Origin: a virus | Reading direction: 5' to 3' (one strand) | DNA length: 64,000 nt | IMG/VR virus record: IMGVR_UViG_3300047548_001271 | Coordinates: 93,443 to 157,442 of that record | In this document: positions 1-47,085 of the stretch, in pieces | Layout of the letters: each line of letters opens with the position of its first letter | Numbering within the stretch: position 1 is the first letter of the stretch | Program-made: the position numbers and the translations under genes | The notes under the pieces: model-generated | Seen by the model: only the letters and a program-made list of their open reading frames with translations | Told to the model about the DNA's origin: nothing | The model's database searches: none

Positions 1-611
1 TCAGCAAAAGCGAAACCCCTCGTCTGTAAGAAACAACAGACAAGGGGCTAAAATCAGCGTTTAATATTAGAGTTTTCATTTTGCATTCCTCGGTCTAGCC
101 CTTTGAATTGCCTCTGAAACTTGTTCCATTTCTATTGGCGTCAGTCCTGTTTTATAAATTGGGTCGCATGTTTGGTCAAGCATTGATTGCAAGAATCTTC
201 CTTTTTCGTAAAACCCAACAACCCTATTCATTGAATCGACAATTTTATTATTTTTTAAGTAAAACATTCTATTTCCTTTTTAATGAATTCTTTATATTTT
301 CTCTTAACTCTAATTTAAACCTTTGATTTCCAGACCGCTTATAATCAATCAAATTCTCTCTTTTAGAGAAAACAAGCAAAGGATCAACCTTTTTAAATAT
401 TTCTTGACTAATAATATAAATTAGTGAGTGGTTTAAATTTCTCATTTTTTAATATTTCTCTACTTATATTTCGTTTTATTGAATTTGTCGTAATAGAGTC
501 TGAATATATCACCCAAATATTATGATGTAATTTGAAGTCGCATAGATTAATGACTTCATCAAGCAATCGCTCTTTTATAAACTTATTCAATGTTTTCATT
601 CTCTTCCTTTA

Positions 612-685
612 ATAACTCTACTAGGATTCGAACCTAGACTGTCAGATTCAAAATCTGAAGTGCTGACCATTACACCATAGAGCTA
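612..685 (-). tRNA. tRNA-Gln(UUG)
   Basis: Minus-strand cloverleaf: TAGCTCT/AGAGTTA acceptor, anticodon arm TCAGA-TTTTGAA-TCTGA, GGTTCGAATCC T arm; no encoded CCA. Confidence 0.9.
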
Positions 686-687
686 GA

Positions 688-993
688 TTAACCAAAAACA
701 AACTCGCCTTGTTCATTAATGAAAAGCTCTTCGCCGTTTTTAACTCTTTGTTCAATATTTGAGTCTTCATTAGGTTCGACATGATCAACGCAGTAAGTGT
801 TAATTGGTACTTGAATTATTGATGCTTCCCAATTCCACCTCTTACCATCTTCTTCATATGGTCCAATATATTCATCAATTTCGTCGTAAGCAATTTTTGC
901 CGAGTTTCTATCTGTAAAAACTCCAAATATCCTACTTTGTTTTTCATTTCCATATATAACAACATAAACAGAGTTATTTGTATTTTCGTTCAT
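688..993 (-). CDS. hypothetical phage protein
   Basis: ORF track; start moved to MNENT, which follows AAGGG. Confidence 0.6.
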   Translation of the reverse strand: MNENTNNSVYVVIYGNEKQSRIFGVFTDRNSAKIAYDEIDEYIGPYEEDGKRWNWEASIIQVPINTYCVDHVEPNEDSNIEQRVKNGEELFINEQGEFVFG

Positions 994-1206
994 ATCTACC
1001 CTTAAAAAAAACATATGAAAAAGGCCACGGGAAAATCTCTTTTAGACATTTGAAATGCCAAAAATGATCATCAAAATCTATTATGAGATGCGGAACACTT
1101 CTGTTATCATCACGTCTAACCAATTTTAGCTTACCCTTGCCATAAGTCAAGCGAAAAATTAGACCATTTATAAAACAATTACCGTAAGATATTTTCCCGT
1201 GCCAGT

Positions 1207-1815: not shown

Positions 1816-2412
1816 TCAACCCCACTGATTAGCCATAGCTTCAGCAACGCCTAAAAATGTTTTCGATCTGACTTTTCCTCTTTCTGATCGTTTTACATTT
1901 GATGTTTTGTAAAACCAAGCGTCCATACGTTTTCCACTTTTAAAAACAACTGGTGGATCTGGTTGTACAATATTAGTTGGTACTAATTTTGGCAAACCCT
2001 TTAACCACAAACAAGTTTTCTTCGTTGCTGGAAATCCAAACATATACGGCTCAATGATTTGGTCTGGTTTTCGATAAACGTTTGACATAATACCGACTGG
2101 ATTTTCGATGCATATTTTTGGACATGGGTGATTTGCAAACAGCATGAAAAAATCAATACCTTGCTGTTGTCTTCCGTCGGCTCTTTTCTGGGCAAAGTGT
2201 GCAGCCCCAGAACTAGCTAAATGAGTGCATGGAGGAAAGGCAATAATCATATCCCAATCTTCATTTAAGACTGTATTGACATCGCACTGGAGATGGAATT
2301 CGGGAAGGCCGCCAGAACAAGGCTCAATGTCGCATGAAAAAGCCTTGTGACCTTTTTCCCGAAAAGCTTTACAAACAGCTTGACTTTCCTCACATGCAAT
2401 TAGTATTTTCAT
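1816..2412 (-). CDS. DNA cytosine methyltransferase (short phage type)
   Basis: ILIACEES SAM-binding region, catalytic FPPCTHL, IENP motif, C-terminal RSKTFxGxAEAMAxQWG. Confidence 0.8.
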   Translation of the reverse strand: MKILIACEESQAVCKAFREKGHKAFSCDIEPCSGGLPEFHLQCDVNTVLNEDWDMIIAFPPCTHLASSGAAHFAQKRADGRQQQGIDFFMLFANHPCPKICIENPVGIMSNVYRKPDQIIEPYMFGFPATKKTCLWLKGLPKLVPTNIVQPDPPVVFKSGKRMDAWFYKTSNVKRSERGKVRSKTFLGVAEAMANQWG

Positions 2413-3259
2413 ATGTTTCTATTTCTTGTTTAATGACATGTTTATAACTAATAAGAAAAGAGAATAATATTTGAAAAAGTTTATTATTTATATTTATCGG
2501 AATATTTTTATCACTTATTGACTTACCAATTGACATAATGGTTTTAGTATAGATTAAATTTAATGATTTTTTACTCATTTAATTAACTTTGTTGGATTTG
2601 ATTTTTTAGTTCTTCCATAATCATTTTACTTTTAAGTGCAAAAGAGACAGGTAATGGATCATTAGAAGAAAATCTTCTACGAAGTCTGTTATTATACCCA
2701 TGCGTTTTATAAACATCATGGTATAAATTATCCCAAATACAATAATAAACAATATACTCTAGGCCATAAAATTTTTTATTAGTCATTTTCGAACTCTTTG
2801 GTTTAACAATAAACAGACCATCCGATAAATTAATTTCTGGATAATTCATGATTTATTAGCGTTCTTAATTCCCAGCCAAACACACTCGAAAAAATATTCT
2901 GCTTAATCATATTGTTATAAATAATTCTCATTATAAAAATGTCAACTAGTTGCTGTGACAAATCATATCTTACTTTTATTTGAGCTTTCCATTCAATTGT
3001 ATTTATCATGATTATTTATCTTTTTTTTTAATTCGAATAAAAATTCATTGGTAATTAATCTTTTTATTTTTTTATCATGAAAAACAGATCTTCTGTTAGC
3101 ATATAGTTCATTTGATCGTAAAACTCCGTGCCAAACAAGTCGGCGTTTAGACATTGTAACTTCACATGTGCCAAAATATAAATCTATATTTAATAAATTA
3201 TATATAATCTGTCTTAAAGACATAAATATCCGCCTAAAACTTGGTATATGTAAGAGAAT

Positions 3260-9784: not shown

Positions 9785-10252
9785 TCAGTCGCGAGCGCGG
9801 CGTTCGGCGGCTTGCTCGCTATCCCATTCTCGCTGATACACAATCTGAACACTCTTGAAACAAGCTGGAATAGTAACATCACCGTGTACGGGATGGGTAA
9901 TTGTCGCGCCATTTGTCAGCTTAAGAAATGGACCATTCAGACTTAGCTCATTCCATTCTGATGGAACATACATTTTCACGCCTTCAAGTGATGCAAGACA
10001 GTGCTTAGAGCCAATCGTGTTTTCGTTACCTGGCACCAAGTTAAACATCGCTTGGCGTTCTACATAACCTCGTGGAGGATCTTCATCATCAACCAAGACG
10101 ATTCCAAAATCACCTTGCCAAACCGCGTCTCCATCGACACACGCTTCGGAAAACGTGTAAGGTTGACCAGGTGTGATGGTATCATGACGACCATCAGCAA
10201 TCTGCTTGGCATAAGCAACAATATCAGCAACTTCAACTTCACAATTAACCAT
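9785..10252 (-). CDS. conserved hypothetical protein (usual partner of DUF6745 proteins)
   Basis: WQGD, H..H (HPVHGDVTIP) and QREW motifs; adjacent to a DUF6745-like gene. Confidence 0.6.
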   Translation of the reverse strand: MVNCEVEVADIVAYAKQIADGRHDTITPGQPYTFSEACVDGDAVWQGDFGIVLVDDEDPPRGYVERQAMFNLVPGNENTIGSKHCLASLEGVKMYVPSEWNELSLNGPFLKLTNGATITHPVHGDVTIPACFKSVQIVYQREWDSEQAAERRARD

Positions 10253-10266
10253 AATAAAACCTTTCT

Positions 10267-11136
10267 TTAAGTACGAGCAATAGTGCGAACTTTACGACGA
10301 CCAATAACAGAGTTTGAACCAACACCAGACAGCCACTTTTGAGCACCCTCACAAGTCCTTGTTTCTTCCAGGGTTTGAATACCCTTTACAAACACTCGAC
10401 CTGTTGGACAAACACAAACTAGTCTACGACCAAATCTATCTGTATCATATAGTGCTTCAAGAGTTCCTTCAACTTCATTTCTTCGAGAATCAAGTTTAAC
10501 TGATTTACTTTCAGCAATATATCGTTCCCAACCAAATCTATCAATCATGATCGATTGAATATCTGAATTTTGTTCATCATTGATTTGTTTGACTGTGAGC
10601 GTTTCGGGTCTCATGACAATTTGTTCAGTGACTTGATTACCACGAATACACCAGATCGAAAAACCGTCGGAATAACGGATAGCTGGGCCGCTTTCGTTGT
10701 GAAGAACGCCGTTCTCAATGTTGATTTGTTCAGGCTTTCGCACTAGATACAAAGTATCATCTTTTTGGTAATACATTGAAACGTTAAGTGCTAAAGTAAC
10801 CAAGTCCTCTAGTCGAGGATCTAGTTCTAGTTTTATTACATCACGAAAATATGTGTAATAAGCAAGCCACGAAGCTTCAAAAGAACCAAAACAAGACTGA
10901 TTAACAAAGTCTGGATCTTTGACTATATTATATATCGCTTTAGGCGAAGGAACTATCTCGTATTTAGTTGGAGCGTTTTGTTCATTTGCTCCTTCGTAGA
11001 TATTTTTTACAGCTCTCAAACAAGCTTCTTCGTCAACATTTTGATCCGTTGAACATCCAATCTTCAACCACTTTTCAATCCAAACCGGCATCATAGCTTC
11101 TTGTTCCGGCGTAAGTTCTGTTATTTTTTCCGTCAT
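10267..11136 (-). CDS. DUF6745-like domain protein
   Basis: LTPEQEA N-terminus, LHNESGPAIRYSDGF, IDRFGWERYI, CPTGRVF. Confidence 0.7.
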   Translation of the reverse strand: MTEKITELTPEQEAMMPVWIEKWLKIGCSTDQNVDEEACLRAVKNIYEGANEQNAPTKYEIVPSPKAIYNIVKDPDFVNQSCFGSFEASWLAYYTYFRDVIKLELDPRLEDLVTLALNVSMYYQKDDTLYLVRKPEQINIENGVLHNESGPAIRYSDGFSIWCIRGNQVTEQIVMRPETLTVKQINDEQNSDIQSIMIDRFGWERYIAESKSVKLDSRRNEVEGTLEALYDTDRFGRRLVCVCPTGRVFVKGIQTLEETRTCEGAQKWLSGVGSNSVIGRRKVRTIART

Positions 11137-24609: not shown

Positions 24610-24718
24610 TCCGGCAGCTAGGATTCGAACCTAGATCACGATCTTAGAAGTGATAATTTTAATGCTGTTAGAGATAAAATATCTCGTTTTACGTGTTTTA
24701 CCGTTAAACTACCGCCGA
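24610..24718 (-). ncRNA. tRNA-bodied RNA with ACAGCA module in the anticodon arm (copy 1)
   Basis: Acceptor TCGGCGG/CTGCCGG, D arm GTTT-AACGGTA-AAAC, T arm CTAGG-TTCGAAT-CCTAG; arm insert TAAAAC-GAGAT(ATTTT)ATCTC-TAACAGCA. Confidence 0.8.
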
Positions 24719-24719
24719 T

Positions 24720-24823
24720 ATGTGTTGCCGGGACTCGAACCCGGATGCTAAAATTTTATGCTGTTAGAGATCTTTTCTGTATCTCGTTTTCATATTTTTG
24801 CTTTACCATTAAGCTACAACACA
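24720..24823 (-). ncRNA. tRNA-bodied RNA with ACAGCA module in the anticodon arm (copy 2)
   Basis: Acceptor TGTGTTG/CAACACA, D arm GCTT/AAGC, stem AAAAT/ATTTT enclosing GAAAAC-GAGAT(ACAGAAAAG)ATCTC-TAACAGCA, T arm CCGGG-TTCGAGT-CCCGG. Confidence 0.82.
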
Positions 24824-30410: not shown

Positions 30411-31322
30411 TTAATGATTGAGTTTGCTACGAACTTCTTGTAATGAATACTCCTTCAGAATATTAGAATCTCTAAAGATTTCAACAAGTTCGCCTTGAGA
30501 CTCTTGTTCTGGAGTGCAGTTGTTCACTAGAGATAGTTTACCATCATTCCTTACTACTGACAATAGTCCTTTTGCAGATTTTTTAGTTCCGTTATCAGTT
30601 TTTGGGTCTTTCCAGATTGGTTTTGCTTCGCCATTGATCTGCACCCAAGTCGCCTTACACGCAATACTGAATGTATCACGAGTATTGTACTGGTAAGTAT
30701 AGCTTCCAACGCCGAATACAACATTAGTTGATGCAAAACCTTTAGCTTCCAATCGCTCGCAAATTCTCTTACAACGATCAAGAGTTATACTGTCTCCGTA
30801 AATCAGACCAATATGAGAATCTAGTTCAATATAACCCTTAGAATTCTGTGTACCACCAAAAACATCATAAAGTCTTTCTACAGCACCTTCAACTTCTGAT
30901 TGTGAGACGATTTTACCTTCTGGTGTTACATAGTCACCGTCTATTGTGAGCAAGCACTCAACACCATCAAATGCCTTCATAACATACGATGCACTATCCA
31001 ACTTCTTTAAGAGCTTTTTAGTTGTCAACCCACAACTATCAAATGTGTAACCAGTCAAGATTTTAACTGGGTCTCCGCTGTCAGGTCGGATAACAACCTT
31101 CCCATTTCGATTCATGATTTGATCTTTAATCGAAGGAAGAAGATTGTCAATTACAGACCAAAAATCCCATGTATCACTTACAATTGATACAATTCCTTCT
31201 GGATAAACATCTTGAATTAAACGTAGAAACATGCCTCTTTCATTATAAGACAGAATTTGTGATTGATATTTTTCAATATCTTGTTTAGTTACTGATCTAG
31301 TTCTTGTGATTGGTGTATTCAT
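30411..31322 (-). CDS. nadV: nicotinamide phosphoribosyltransferase-like, C-terminal half
   Basis: VSIVSDTWD, VIRPDSGDP, GLIYGDSIT, VFGVGS, RDTF, KDPKTD..KKSAKG; start at MNTP is uncertain. Confidence 0.85.
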   Translation of the reverse strand: MNTPITRTRSVTKQDIEKYQSQILSYNERGMFLRLIQDVYPEGIVSIVSDTWDFWSVIDNLLPSIKDQIMNRNGKVVIRPDSGDPVKILTGYTFDSCGLTTKKLLKKLDSASYVMKAFDGVECLLTIDGDYVTPEGKIVSQSEVEGAVERLYDVFGGTQNSKGYIELDSHIGLIYGDSITLDRCKRICERLEAKGFASTNVVFGVGSYTYQYNTRDTFSIACKATWVQINGEAKPIWKDPKTDNGTKKSAKGLLSVVRNDGKLSLVNNCTPEQESQGELVEIFRDSNILKEYSLQEVRSKLNH

Positions 31323-31356
31323 ATATAACAGCACTTTCGGAACAATGGAGAATAAA

Positions 31357-31950
31357 ATGAAGAAATGTGGACATTGCAAAGAATTAAAACCATTAGAATC
31401 GTTTTGTAAAAATAAACGATGTAAAGATGGATATCATTATACTTGCAAACAATGCGTTAATAAATCGTGCTCAACAGAAGAGTACAAAACAAAACGTAAA
31501 TTGTATTATCATACTTGTGAAAAATATAAACTTAGAAAAATATCACAATCTACTAAAGTTAGAAAAGTGGAGTATGATAAAATTTATAGAAAAAAGAACG
31601 CGGATAAGATAAAAATACAAAAACGTGATTGGGAAAAATTGCATAAAAATGATCCTATATTTAAAATTAAAAGAAACCTAAGAAGAAGAATCAACCATTT
31701 AGTTAGGGGTCAAAAATCAGATAAAACTTTTAACTTAATAGGTTGCAACGCCGAAGAATTCAAAAAACATATAGAATCTCAGTTTTTAGAAGGAATGTCT
31801 TGGGATAACTATGGAGAATGGCACATTGATCATATAGTTGAATGCTTTAGATTTGATTTAACAGATTTTGAAAATCAAAAAAAATGTTTTCATTATACCA
31901 ATCAAAGGCCACTATGGAAGAAAGATAATCTTACTAGAAAACGAATTTAG
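31357..31950 (+). CDS. HNH/endonuclease VII-like homing endonuclease, antisense insertion in the NAMPT-like gene
   Basis: GGAG RBS; N-terminal CxxC..CKQC; GMSWDNYGEWHIDHI...HYTNQRPLW..DN. Confidence 0.85.
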   Translation: MKKCGHCKELKPLESFCKNKRCKDGYHYTCKQCVNKSCSTEEYKTKRKLYYHTCEKYKLRKISQSTKVRKVEYDKIYRKKNADKIKIQKRDWEKLHKNDPIFKIKRNLRRRINHLVRGQKSDKTFNLIGCNAEEFKKHIESQFLEGMSWDNYGEWHIDHIVECFRFDLTDFENQKKCFHYTNQRPLWKKDNLTRKRI

Positions 31951-32761
31951 AAAACTCCCATTCATTAGTTTTTTCATTATAAACTTCTACTATTTCTTTT
32001 GGGTTATGCAAAGATCCATGGGCACAACAGACTGCGTGTTCTGTGGCTGGGACGCTCGCCCCAACAAGCTCATTCTCAACATCAGCTTTATAATATTCTT
32101 CAAGAAATTCAATTGCTGTGATAGTGTCAGTCCCAGAAAATGAGAGCAAATGACCAGCACCAGAGACAGAACCACTTTCTACAGAAGACATGCCCCTCAT
32201 TGAGAAATCATGACCTTGCCAATCCACAAACGCCGGATTATCAGAAGTCTTATTCGCGTAGGAGTCAAGAACCTTTCTGTACTCATGAGCAATAGTTGCA
32301 GATGTAATTGCCTGCCAAATTACAGTTTGAGTTAGTGTTTCAACAAAATTTGTCAACCAGTAAAACTCTGGTTTTGTGTTGACAATTGTCATGAATGGAA
32401 CACCTACTGGGCAGAGAGTTCCTTCTGGCAAAGCCTTGATTGACAACGGCAAATACTGGAGATCGTGCAGTGCGGCAATCCTTTCAGCATTCACTGATCC
32501 TTTACCAAGAGTATTGTCCATCATCCGCAAAAACTTGTTTACAACAACTTCTTTTGGTTGACTGAAAAACTCTTTGTCAAATCTATCTACGAGGTATTCT
32601 TTCACTAGATATTGAAGACCGAAAACAACAACCTCGTTAACGCCGCTCAACCTCGAAGATCGTGGCGTGGTATTTGAGTATACAAACTCAGTTCCTGGTG
32701 GATATTGATCTGGGTGGGATTGCTTGTAAAAGTCAGAGATAAACAATGGGAAGTTTTTCAT
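31934..32761 (-). CDS. nadV: nicotinamide phosphoribosyltransferase-like, N-terminal half
   Basis: DFYKQSH..QYP, FGLQY, ALPEG, HDFSMRG, GTDT, SVPATEH. Confidence 0.88.
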   Translation of the reverse strand: MKNFPLFISDFYKQSHPDQYPPGTEFVYSNTTPRSSRLSGVNEVVVFGLQYLVKEYLVDRFDKEFFSQPKEVVVNKFLRMMDNTLGKGSVNAERIAALHDLQYLPLSIKALPEGTLCPVGVPFMTIVNTKPEFYWLTNFVETLTQTVIWQAITSATIAHEYRKVLDSYANKTSDNPAFVDWQGHDFSMRGMSSVESGSVSGAGHLLSFSGTDTITAIEFLEEYYKADVENELVGASVPATEHAVCCAHGSLHNPKEIVEVYNEKTNEWEFSKFVF

Positions 32762-33636
32762 TTTGAAATCCTTGAAAGAAAACAGAATTGTTTGGTACGC
32801 AAATTGTTCCAGCAGTAGATTGAATTATACCCGGAGTCTAAGACTATGTCAACACCTTTCGAGAAAATTCCATGGGAAACATAGAGATGAAGAGATTTAA
32901 AATTATCAAGTTTTTTAGCCACTTCGATGAATGTACGTCCACCATCGCAAATGTCATCAACTACAAGAATGTTTTTCCCTTTAGTTGAAACTTCATCAAC
33001 CGGCTCTATCCCTAGAATATTACCAGTAGATTGATCTCTAACTTTTGAGAAGTGCAAGCTTTCAACTTGTTTAGCGAACTGCTCGTTTCTTATTTTTAAA
33101 AGAGTTTTGTATCTATCCATTGCTCCTTTATCTGGATAAATAACAATATCAATCTTTTCTTGTTCAATGATATGGTTAATTGTTCCTAGCGGTAGTTCAT
33201 CTTTAAGTGTTACTCTTGATGTATCAATAAGACCCGAAAGAGCTTTAAAGTTATGCACATCAAAAGTTTTTAAAGAGGAAATTTTATTATTTAAAACATC
33301 GCACAATGTTTTTAAAGCAAAGCAACTATCATTTGAAACGCTCTTATCTTGTCTAGCATATGGAAAATAGGGAACAGATAAATGTATCTCTGATTTTTCA
33401 ATTGATTGAATAAGATCTATTAGCTGAAAAAGTTGAAAAACTTCAGCTTCAGATTCAAACAACCAATCAACATTAACTTTTGAAGCCTCAATTGTTTGAT
33501 AAGTATTATAAAACCCTCCGTTTAATATTACTTTTCTTTGCGTTGACTTGAGGATATCATCGCTCAAATGCCAAATTTGAGATGTTCCATCTGGAAAAAC
33601 TGTTGGAGTTACTACATAACCATTAACTAAAAACAT
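32758..33636 (-). CDS. prs: ribose-phosphate pyrophosphokinase-like protein (Prs/Adps-type)
   Basis: FPDGT, PYFPYARQDK, PDKGA, VVDDICDGGRTF, VSHGIFS. Confidence 0.88.
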   Translation of the reverse strand: MFLVNGYVVTPTVFPDGTSQIWHLSDDILKSTQRKVILNGGFYNTYQTIEASKVNVDWLFESEAEVFQLFQLIDLIQSIEKSEIHLSVPYFPYARQDKSVSNDSCFALKTLCDVLNNKISSLKTFDVHNFKALSGLIDTSRVTLKDELPLGTINHIIEQEKIDIVIYPDKGAMDRYKTLLKIRNEQFAKQVESLHFSKVRDQSTGNILGIEPVDEVSTKGKNILVVDDICDGGRTFIEVAKKLDNFKSLHLYVSHGIFSKGVDIVLDSGYNSIYCWNNLRTKQFCFLSRISK

Positions 33637-44786: not shown

Positions 44787-45485
44787 CTTACCACTACAAT
44801 TTTAATTGCTAGGTGTATATAATATAGCAAACCTATTTGTGGTCTGGACTTTGTCTTTGCCATGTTAGTATTATACTAATTTAGGCACCCCCTGTCAAGT
44901 CTCTACACCTTTTATTTGGATTTTTTATGAAATTTAGAAAATACACAAAAGAACAACTAATTGAAGCCGTTCAATCATCTATTTCTATTAGAGAAGTTTT
45001 AATTAAACTTAATGTTTCCGCACATGGTGGAAACTATAGTGTAATAAAAAGCTATATCAAAAATTTGAATATAGACACTTCTCATTTTAAAGGAATGGGT
45101 CATAGTAAAGGTAAAAATTTCGGCCCAAAAAGACCAATTGAAGAATACCTTTCCAATAAACATAAAATAACTTCTCATAAACTTCGTCAACGACTCATTA
45201 GAGAAGAATATTTTGAGCATAAATGCTCTTGTTGCCAAAATGTTTTATGGAACAATAAACCAATTCCTTTAGAGCTTGAGCATAAAGATGGAAATCACTA
45301 TAATAATAATTTAGATAATTTAACATTATTATGCCCAAACTGCCATGCTCAAACATCTACTTATAGAGGTAAGAACATATCCAAATAACTTGGCTCGGCA
45401 TTAGCATCAGCACTACCTGTTAAGCCTTCACCGAGTTTAAGGGGTTCTACATAAAAAGTTTCCTTTTTAGCACTCAAATTAAATT
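44787..45485 (-). mobile_element. group I intron (trnL-UAA type) containing a homing endonuclease gene
   Basis: Inserted after U34 and ends in G; P AAACTCGGTGAA, Q AATGCCGAGC, R GTAGAGACTTGA, S AAGACAAAGTCC. Confidence 0.9.
44927..45388 (+). CDS. HNH homing endonuclease, antisense within the intron
   Basis: CSCC...LELEHKDGNHYNN.LDNL.LLCPNCHAQT; N-terminal YTKEQL..AV.SS.S..EVL.KL. Confidence 0.9.
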   Translation: MKFRKYTKEQLIEAVQSSISIREVLIKLNVSAHGGNYSVIKSYIKNLNIDTSHFKGMGHSKGKNFGPKRPIEEYLSNKHKITSHKLRQRLIREEYFEHKCSCCQNVLWNNKPIPLELEHKDGNHYNNNLDNLTLLCPNCHAQTSTYRGKNISK

Positions 45486-45529
45486 AAGTCTCCTGCGTCT
45501 GCCAATTCCGCCACAGTGGCATATCATCT

Positions 45530-45557
45530 ATTATATCTACTTCTCAAACTCTGTCAA
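45530..45557 (-). promoter_or_regulatory. promoter of tRNA-Leu(UAA)
   Basis: TTGACA-N16-TATAAT immediately upstream of the tRNA. Confidence 0.8.
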
Positions 45558-47085
45558 TATCATTTTTCTAGTGTCGCGAAAAATTAAATATAAAGAATTG
45601 TTAATAATTTTAAGAACGTTTACGCTTGGTGGAATTATAAATTCAAGATTAGATTTTGTTTTGTCATATATAATATTATCAGATATTGCATATATTTCAT
45701 CTTCTAATCCTCGCATAAACTATACAACCCTTCTACAAAGTTCAGGTTCTCCATAATATTCTTTATTAGCTAGAACAACTATTCTTCCATCATCAAGCTG
45801 CTGAATTATTTTTCCAACTTCTTGCCAATCTTGTGAAGTCCATATTACTACCCAATCCCCAACTTCTAATGGTTTACCGTCTTTGTCGCGCATATTATTT
45901 CTGCCTTGTGTTCTTAACTATCTTGCTAAACCATTCATCATCCGGTCCAACATTTGAAACAATGACGTATCGCACTTCCAAACGATTATTTAGTTTTTCT
46001 AAAACTCGTTTGGCTTCCTCTAGTGATTCGTAAGATGCATATAAAGTCAATCCTACTGGAGTTCCAGGTGGAAAATTGTTATTTATTGGTATTGATCTCA
46101 TTATGTGATGCATTTTAAACCCCTCTCGACTGAGTTCCGGTGTCGATTTTAAGTGTTGTTTTTTTATCGCTTCAAATCTTCGTCTATGACAACTATGACA
46201 AGCATCTTTTTGTGTTTTCAAATCAGTGTTTTTGTCGAATAAAACCCATATTCCGCACACTTGAGTCCAGTAGACACTAATGCTTTTACACACCCTGCAT
46301 TGAACTGGTTTTTGTGTGTAACCACTCCAACCGTCTTCTCCCGGTATATAGGCATCGTTATATAGGTCTGGTTCATATCCATCGCCATTTAATCCACCAA
46401 AGAATGGAAACATCACGGTTTTACCTTTCAGTAATTGGCGTAATTACTTTTTTTAGTCTTGTTCATCATGGACAAGCTTAATTTCTAAGAAATATATTCA
46501 TCAGCTTGATTCTTCTCCCAATTATCCAATGCCGCTCGCAATGTAGCAGTTTTTGGGTTCTGAAGTTCGTTTTTTATCCAAATAAACACTAAAGTAAACA
46601 CCACCACATCAAATAACATAAGAAACATCGCCATTAACCCTAACGCTGGTCGCCGAGTCGTAAAGTCAAACGCCCCAAGCCAAAGAAAAAACCAAAGTAA
46701 AAAATTTTGTATAACGACTAAAAGTAATGCCGTTCGGAACGAAATCTTACTTATGAATTTCTCCAATTTGAGCTGTTTGTCGGTATATTCTTTCATATTC
46801 ATGATCTCCTCCTTTTTTGGATTATACATAGCATTCTACCATACTTATCGCCTCTGTCAAGTAGAGTTTGTGCGAGAACGTCGCCGAGAGGATGAGTAAT
46901 AAACAGTATAAGTCACACCGCTATCATTAAAAACTTCTTTTTCCATCACTCCCATATCAACCAACATGTTCATAAACTTTTTTTCTGAAAAGTTAAGGTC
47001 TTCAGCATCAATTCCGCAATAAATTTTTGCAAGTCTTTGAACGAATTCTTCGTTTGTCATAAATCACCTTTTTACAAATTGTTAT

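Follow-up and report, generated by a model that had tools for sequence, protein, structure and literature searches.

The window, a 64,000-nucleotide (nt) stretch of a virus contig (IMG/VR record IMGVR_UViG_3300047548_001271, positions 93,443 to 157,442), holds a gene for a Nampt-like enzyme that is divided in two by a free-standing HNH/EndoVII-type endonuclease gene on the opposite strand. We consider it likely, at a probability of about 80%, that a mobile homing-endonuclease cassette has entered this gene and left behind a working two-chain enzyme, a putative Namat of the NARP1 anti-defence system. A gene in pieces with neither intron nor intein, both halves being kept, was the original prediction, and comparison with other phages supports it: the layout persists in relatives whose halves are only 47-66% identical, with ratios of nonsynonymous to synonymous substitution (dN/dS) of 0.12-0.17 for the N-half core and the tail.

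The insert spans positions 31245-32011 (767 bp) and starts eight codons past the catalytic histidine of the ATEH motif. Residues 7-250 of the N-terminal half (N-half) align without gaps to residues 10-253 of Protein Data Bank (PDB) entry 9W5X (E = 3.7e-94), given in the available sections of Lan et al. (PMC12774641) as the structure of the SpbetaL1 Namat. In the C-terminal half (C-half) the alignment resumes at residue 27, which corresponds to residue 254 of 9W5X. The enzyme is split exactly between residues 253 and 254, with no residue lost or duplicated. Against the phrog_448 profile, positions 14-263 are matched by the N-half and positions 254-494 by the C-half. The break site is a surface loop between the short segment that follows the catalytic histidine and the next helix. 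As had been noted, the N-half ends 33 amino acids (aa) past SVPATEH; the first eight of these are native, so the extra tail is 25 aa long. The 3' end of the plus-strand open reading frame (ORF) runs over the N-half stop by 17 nt (31934-31950, from the ORF calls), and the C-half restarts in another frame, with its ATG at 31322 on the minus strand and 26-27 extra residues, the head, before the native sequence. The two halves are otherwise intact, as also noted, with a clean junction and all catalytic residues present.

The enzyme had been described as NAMPT-like. The Nampt fold and the catalytic histidine uphold this, but it is better named a Namat of NARP1 than a classical NAMPT salvage enzyme. 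Namat is a nicotinamide ADP-ribose transferase that forms NAD+ out of ADPR-PP and nicotinamide. According to the available sections of Lan et al. 2026 (PMC12774641), Namat differs from Nampt by an adenine selectivity clamp with the helix motif GSXphiXphiXphiTRD, where X is aromatic, and its catalytic, nicotinamide (NAM) and ribose-phosphate residues in SpbetaL1 numbering are D13, Y15, F189, R192, D215, A242, R306, D308, G360, and D361. Residues 206-216 of the C-half (GSYTYQYNTRD) match the clamp helix motif, and R37 of the N-half aligns with the clamp-loop arginine, R40 in SpbetaL1. All the catalytic and clamp residues named in those sections are kept, divided between the two halves. The N-half provides D10, Y12, R37, F186, R189, D212, A239, and the catalytic H242, and the C-half R79, D81, G176, and D177. 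Foldseek also returned Namat 9W5X as the top match of the N-half.

Directly upstream of Namat is a Prs-like gene encoding the Pfam domains Pribosyltran and Pribosyltran_N and matching phrog_619 at 3.6e-54, while its matches to Prs in the PDB are weak, only 1e-13. The gene is kept at this position in the window and in contigs L200 and L086. Judged by its adjacency to Namat, it is probably Adps, the ADP-ribose pyrophosphokinase that acts first in NARP1. Because the clamp motif and the catalytic residues are accompanied by a Prs-like gene directly upstream, the region reads as a NARP1-type Adps-Namat pair, the Adps assignment coming from context. Relative to SpbetaL1 Namat, the C-half has a 53-aa insertion at residues 92-144 (30891-31049, minus strand), which is also present in the intact relatives L087-L090. 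Predicted with a pLDDT of about 97, the insertion looks like a clade-specific extra subdomain.

To see how often the split recurs, we turned to other phages. A protein search with the N-half gave, together with full-length proteins of about 480 aa, many that are about 270-290 aa long and match it over its whole length. The layout of the locus was seen in the contigs that were fetched (L numbers); most of the tail-bearing clusters, and the third tail type described below, are known from proteins alone. The contigs of P0002, P0008, and P0059 were not found in IMG/VR. The order N-half, antisense HNH gene, C-half is present in L085, L200 (the same contig as L322 and L276), L321, L319, and L320. 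Contig L323 codes for the N-half and the antisense HNH and ends before the C-half. L085 is colinear with the window and ungapped across the whole insert, with identities of 66% for the N-half, 76% for the HNH, and 59% for the C-half. For L200 and L321 the corresponding values are about 52%, 50%, and 47%, and one extra small ORF is encoded. In L319 and L320 the HNH gene is again antisense and its product belongs to the same family, at 53% identity. The 17-nt tail-to-tail overlap is identical in L085 and L200. As the same colinear order recurs in all these independent contigs, the split layout is neither a product of chance nor an assembly artefact. The closest metagenome relatives of the window, L087-L090 (65-69% identical over the N part), are uninterrupted at the junction.

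Other arrangements were also seen among the Namat loci. L003 (1620-2368), L027 (4436-5286), and L102 (4960-5789) have in-frame insertions of about 250-280 aa within continuous Namat ORFs of about 795 aa. These insertions are downstream of the split site studied here and are probable inteins. In L228 and L277 (5194-6308) Namat is interrupted by about 1.1 kb at another site, past the position of C-half residue 182. In L324 (933-3133) an HNH homologue, 50% identical, is encoded antisense directly upstream of an intact Namat. This position recalls the usual intergenic location of mobE, an endonuclease gene of phage Aeh1.

The endonuclease encoded in the insert matches phrog_1035, 'endonuclease VII', at E = 4.9e-16 and no Pfam HNH model at E <= 0.01. 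It has an N-terminal four-cysteine finger (CxxC...CxxC) and a HIDH...N...N His-Me core, both invariant in three homologues. The ORF layout is as first described, with one correction: a start at GTG 31306 is less likely than one at ATG 31357 or at 31345. The start is most likely ATG 31357, which is preceded by GGAG, or else 31345. Six of the seven relatives of the endonuclease in IMG/VR are encoded within or beside Namat. None was found among 185,579 species genomes, and the best relatives from cultured phages have about 40% identity and unrelated gene contexts. A DNA-level search of GenBank phages gave no relative of the region.

Between the window and L085, dN/dS is 0.12 for the N-half core, 0.17 for the tail, 0.06 for the endonuclease, and 0.45 for the head. 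It is clear from these ratios that the halves, the tail, and the endonuclease are being kept as proteins, with purifying selection acting on the tail and the endonuclease. With hardly any of it inside the HNH ORF, the tail is conserved in the Namat frame.

Both the tail and the head are absent from intact relatives. The tail type found in the window, T1, is an acidic stretch followed by the motif F/W-D/N-E-x-T-x-x-W. It occurs in 16 N-half clusters, with E259 and W268 invariant across them. The isoelectric point (pI) is 5.0 for the window tail and between 4.1 and 5.1 for 23 of 23 tails, all types included. The window head has a pI of 9.5, and six of seven heads fall between 9.4 and 11.2, the L085 head having a pI of 6.5. 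AlphaFold2 models the tail as a beta-hairpin with strands at residues 256-262 and 267-274 (pLDDT 57-71). For the head alone it gives disorder over residues 1-11 and a helix at 13-25, which is followed by a two-residue break and the native helix at 28-39. T1 tails are paired with heads opening on a basic KTRxR-type motif in the window, L085, L200, L321, and the P0003/P0121 pair. Conservation and opposite charge fit the idea that the tail and head aid assembly, and the precedent of the Aeh1 ribonucleotide reductase (RNR) (PMC3045599) adds support. We also considered whether the tail is a diverged duplicate of downstream sequence, an idea prompted by tblastn alignments that ran on into intact genes. 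It was dropped after a profile-profile comparison of the 16 tails with 88 intact segments, which gave P = 0.19 over 4 columns.

We next placed the split alleles on a Namat tree built from the N-half core (121 rows, with the tail columns left out). The T1 alleles need nine changes on this tree, and at least six are forced by well-supported branches. A single T1 clade was rejected by the approximately unbiased (AU) test (difference in log-likelihood 244, p = 2.9e-5), the test being somewhat weakened as the group was named after a first view of the alignment. Within a single tight clade, the divergence among T1-split, T2-split, and intact alleles is only 12-21%. Related alleles thus have or lack the cassette at the same site, which is the pattern of a mobile cassette. 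The idea that the cassette is younger than its host gene was considered and dropped: the higher DNA identity of the insert is explained by the stronger constraint on the HNH, and synonymous divergence (dS) is saturated in both.

Several points weigh against the reading of a mobile cassette that leaves a working enzyme. In L319 and L320 another tail and another head go with this HNH family, which means that the element is not tied to one pair of peptides. Constraint on the head is weak, as its dN/dS shows. With synonymous sites saturated, the cassette is not demonstrably younger than the host gene. There is a rough correlation between HNH and Namat identities (r = 0.65), with outliers such as L200 versus L323 (78% for Namat, 59% for HNH). 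The scatter of alleles could be explained equally well by many precise losses and by many gains. The argument is weakest on expression of the C-half. Its ATG has only a weak, distant GAAAG upstream, and a sigma-70 consensus scan of the region gave no clear promoter between that ATG and the N-half. Transcripts of the C-half must then either run through 600 nt of antisense HNH or originate within the HNH gene. That the C-half is translated and that the complex is active we infer from the sequence. Finally, the 64 kb analysed belong to a contig of about 157 kb, and a second, intact Namat copy is possible elsewhere on it.

Among the alternatives, the one that survives best is an old and stable split, in which the space between the Namat halves would be a safe harbour for changing endonucleases, the HNH would not be the cause of the split, and the tail and head would be parts of the host gene. 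The co-variation of identities and the pairing of one HNH family with two different tail/head pairs are in its favour. So are the third tail type, found in P0056 and P0059, and the sense-strand HNH_3-type gene that L086 and phage CB7 have in the same loop, along with a conserved tail and head particular to it. However, cassette-bearing alleles are nested among intact ones (79-88% identity) and, with a single clade rejected, the split state must move or be erased repeatedly. In addition, tail type and head type go along with the HNH family in five loci, and no true split without an endonuclease was found among the loci examined. Two candidates for such a split, L052 and L054 (4238-4250), were rejected: their break falls in eight consecutive G, the frame is restored when one G is removed, and the cause is probably a homopolymer sequencing error or slippage. 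We therefore regard an old, stable split as unlikely, though it deserves to be taken seriously.

It is also conceivable that the insertion inactivated Namat and that the halves are decaying pseudogene fragments, as the weak ribosome-binding site of the C-half might suggest. However, at least six further contigs, only 47-66% identical, have both ORFs uninterrupted and every catalytic residue in place, the N-half core has the low dN/dS given above, and the Adps partner is kept upstream in the window, L200, and L086. Decay is accordingly very improbable. An AAGGA Shine-Dalgarno sequence precedes the N-half, and a sigma-70 consensus (12 of 12 positions) about 63 nt upstream is the sole perfect site in the region. 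The consensus (32824-32852) lies inside the 3' end of the Adps-like gene. Namat may be transcribed separately from Adps. L085 shares the ATG of the C-half, which lies in a divergent spacer of 34 nt that is almost unchanged there, is non-coding in both directions if the HNH starts at 31357, and holds the GGAG for the HNH.

With regard to splicing, Rfam gave no intron at E <= 10 in the region. The insert outside the HNH ORF amounts to 61 nt and 112 nt. These flanks fold worse than shuffled sequences (z = +1.0 and +1.2) and evolve as protein-coding sequence in the Namat frames. A group I or group II intron was rejected on these grounds, the flanks being short and unstructured as the original prediction held. 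An intein or split intein was likewise rejected. The tail and head total 51 aa while the intein Hint fold needs at least about 130 aa, neither junction has a Cys, Ser, or Thr, and the tail and head have no terminal His-Asn. The tail begins with Leu, the head ends with Tyr followed by Asn, and the endonuclease is encoded on the opposite strand. Phage endonuclease genes are commonly within group I introns at catalytic sites. A degenerate-intein origin of such tails was raised by Crona et al. (PMC3045599). But given these results, and with the CB7 HNH at the same site not spliced out (PMC7344957), we see hardly any chance that an unrecognised self-splicing intron with an antisense endonuclease gene, or a degenerate split intein, yields one continuous protein.

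If a mobile cassette is indeed responsible, the endonuclease would cut cassette-less Namat alleles of co-infecting relatives, and repair would copy the cassette in (homing). The two halves would be translated separately and reassemble as a Namat dimer of heterodimers, with an active site that draws residues from both halves. With the upstream Adps, the enzyme would rebuild NAD+ from ADP-ribose and nicotinamide, defeating NAD+-depleting defences. The tail, a predicted acidic beta-hairpin, and the basic head are inferred to leave the surface at one point and probably serve as a clasp or assembly aid, as in NrdA-a/NrdA-b of Aeh1. A further proposal, which we put forward tentatively and rate below even odds, is that the cassette carries a co-evolved antidote: the tail/head clasp would be needed for Namat reassembly, making the element a self-contained, splicing-free counterpart of an intein that could enter the catalytic loop of an anti-defence enzyme in distant phages at no cost, with the antisense orientation separating expression of the cassette from that of the host operon.

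The window, part of a large phage genome, encodes 13 tRNAs and a tmRNA, and the minus strand carries 44 of its 48 long ORFs. The features of the split locus are collected in the table.

Table. Positions of the split Namat gene, the insert, and adjoining features in the window.
Feature	Position	Strand	Remarks
Namat N-half, whole ORF	31934..32761	-	275 aa
Namat N-half, native part	32012..32761	-	residues 1-250; AAGGA Shine-Dalgarno upstream; Foldseek top match Namat 9W5X
Tail	31934..32011	-	25 extra codons (31937-32011) and stop; acidic; within insert
Antisense HNH/EndoVII-type endonuclease gene, free-standing	31357..31950	+	197 aa; alternative start 31345
Divergent spacer, HNH start to C-half start	31323..31356		34 nt
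Head	31245..31322	-	26 extra N-terminal codons of C-half; basic; TRTR motif; within insert
Namat C-half, native part	30411..31244	-	matches 9W5X from residue 254, E = 5.4e-75
Namat C-half, whole ORF	30411..31322	-	303 aa; ATG at 31322
Prs-like gene, probable Adps	32758..33636	-	stop overlaps Namat N-half start
Promoter-like site, perfect sigma-70 consensus	32824..32852	-	TTGACA-17-TATAAT; consensus match alone

Elsewhere in the window, a second plus-strand HNH gene (44927-45388; phrog_10822, E = 1.3e-45) is intergenic among minus-strand genes, and about 500 nt without a long ORF (45389-45894) lie 3' of it. Two Rfam tRNA matches of 104-109 nt, not called by ARAGORN, are located at 24610-24823 on the minus strand.

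Taken as a family, these loci would extend tail rescue in the manner of Aeh1 from one phage to many: one cassette type is spread among them, beside the type of CB7 and L086 at the same site. The cassette family offers natural replicates for testing whether such tails are assembly domains under selection, and it marks the NARP1 counter-defence enzyme as a hot spot for selfish elements. There is also a practical side, as annotation pipelines will call two partial 'nicotinamide phosphoribosyltransferases', and surveys of NARP1 may miss or miscount such phages.

In Aeromonas phage Aeh1, Friedrich et al. in 2007 reportedly described nrdA-a along with mobE and nrdA-b as 'genes in pieces'. The tails left in Aeh1 NrdA by the endonuclease insertion are essential for activity and rescue the fragmented enzyme (Crona et al. 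2011, PMC3045599), and the same authors guessed that tail rescue might be general (PMC3045599). As in the window, a free-standing HNH gene splits the Aeh1 enzyme within an alpha/beta barrel beside catalytic residues, and the tails are oppositely charged. Neither RNA nor protein splicing occurs in Aeh1, and no splicing element was detected in the window. The two systems differ in their target, RNR in Aeh1 and Namat in the window, and in the endonuclease, which is encoded in sense in Aeh1 and is antisense and of another subfamily in the window. The charge polarity is also reversed, the window having an acidic N-half tail and a basic C-half head. Aeh1 is a single case in which function was shown, whereas the tail and head of the window are known from sequence and conserved in many diverged phages.

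In the fractured genes with split inteins found in environmental phage DNA by Dassa et al. 2009 (PMC2677866), the halves are likewise parted by a free-standing endonuclease gene, and short terminal peptides were proposed to attract each other electrostatically (PMC2677866). Unlike those split inteins, the tail and head of the window have no intein blocks or nucleophiles and, at 51 aa in total, are far under intein size, so trans-splicing is not expected.

NARP1 of phages Bas63 and SpbetaL1 (bioRxiv 10.1101/2024.02.11.579819; PMC12774641; 9W5X, 9W5W) has, like the window, a Prs-like gene followed by a Nampt-like gene. SpbetaL1 Namat is about 55% identical to the window halves and has the catalytic core and the adenine clamp motif in common with them. 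In the available sections of these sources, the Namat of Bas63 and SpbetaL1 is a single chain, unlike the two halves of the window, and those sections of Osterman et al. (10.1101/2024.02.11.579819) and Lan et al. (PMC12774641) make no mention of split forms.

Another of the closest known systems is that of Pectobacterium phage vB_PatM_CB7 (Buttimer et al. 2020, PMC7344957). In CB7 a nicotinamide phosphoribosyl transferase is encoded as CB7_244 and CB7_246 around the HNH gene CB7_245; by reverse-transcription PCR the HNH was found not to be spliced out, and two peptides were proposed on the model of Aeh1 (PMC7344957). Phage phiTE is annotated in the same way (PMC7344957). CB7 and the window have in common the enzyme family, the loop a few residues past the catalytic histidine, and the location downstream of a Prs-like gene. 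The CB7 halves are 41-44% identical to those of the window. The CB7 HNH is in sense and of the HNH_3 type, related to the HNH of the freshwater contig L086, which is encoded at the same loop on the sense strand of Namat (2097-2693, plus strand). It has no BLASTP match to the window HNH at E <= 1e-3. The tail and head of CB7 are also of another type than those of the window and resemble those of L086. Further endonuclease genes are found at both loci. One (phrog_4645; 414-1181, minus strand) lies between Adps and Namat in L086, and in CB7 (L334) the HNH gene CB7_243 (9971-10528) lies between the Prs-like gene and the Namat N-half, giving the NARP1-like operon of CB7 two endonuclease genes with CB7_245. 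A Nampt-like gene split at this site without splicing has thus already been published for CB7, and the window represents a second cassette type. What is new in the window is the antisense orientation, the different endonuclease family, and a tail/head pair that is conserved across many diverged phages.

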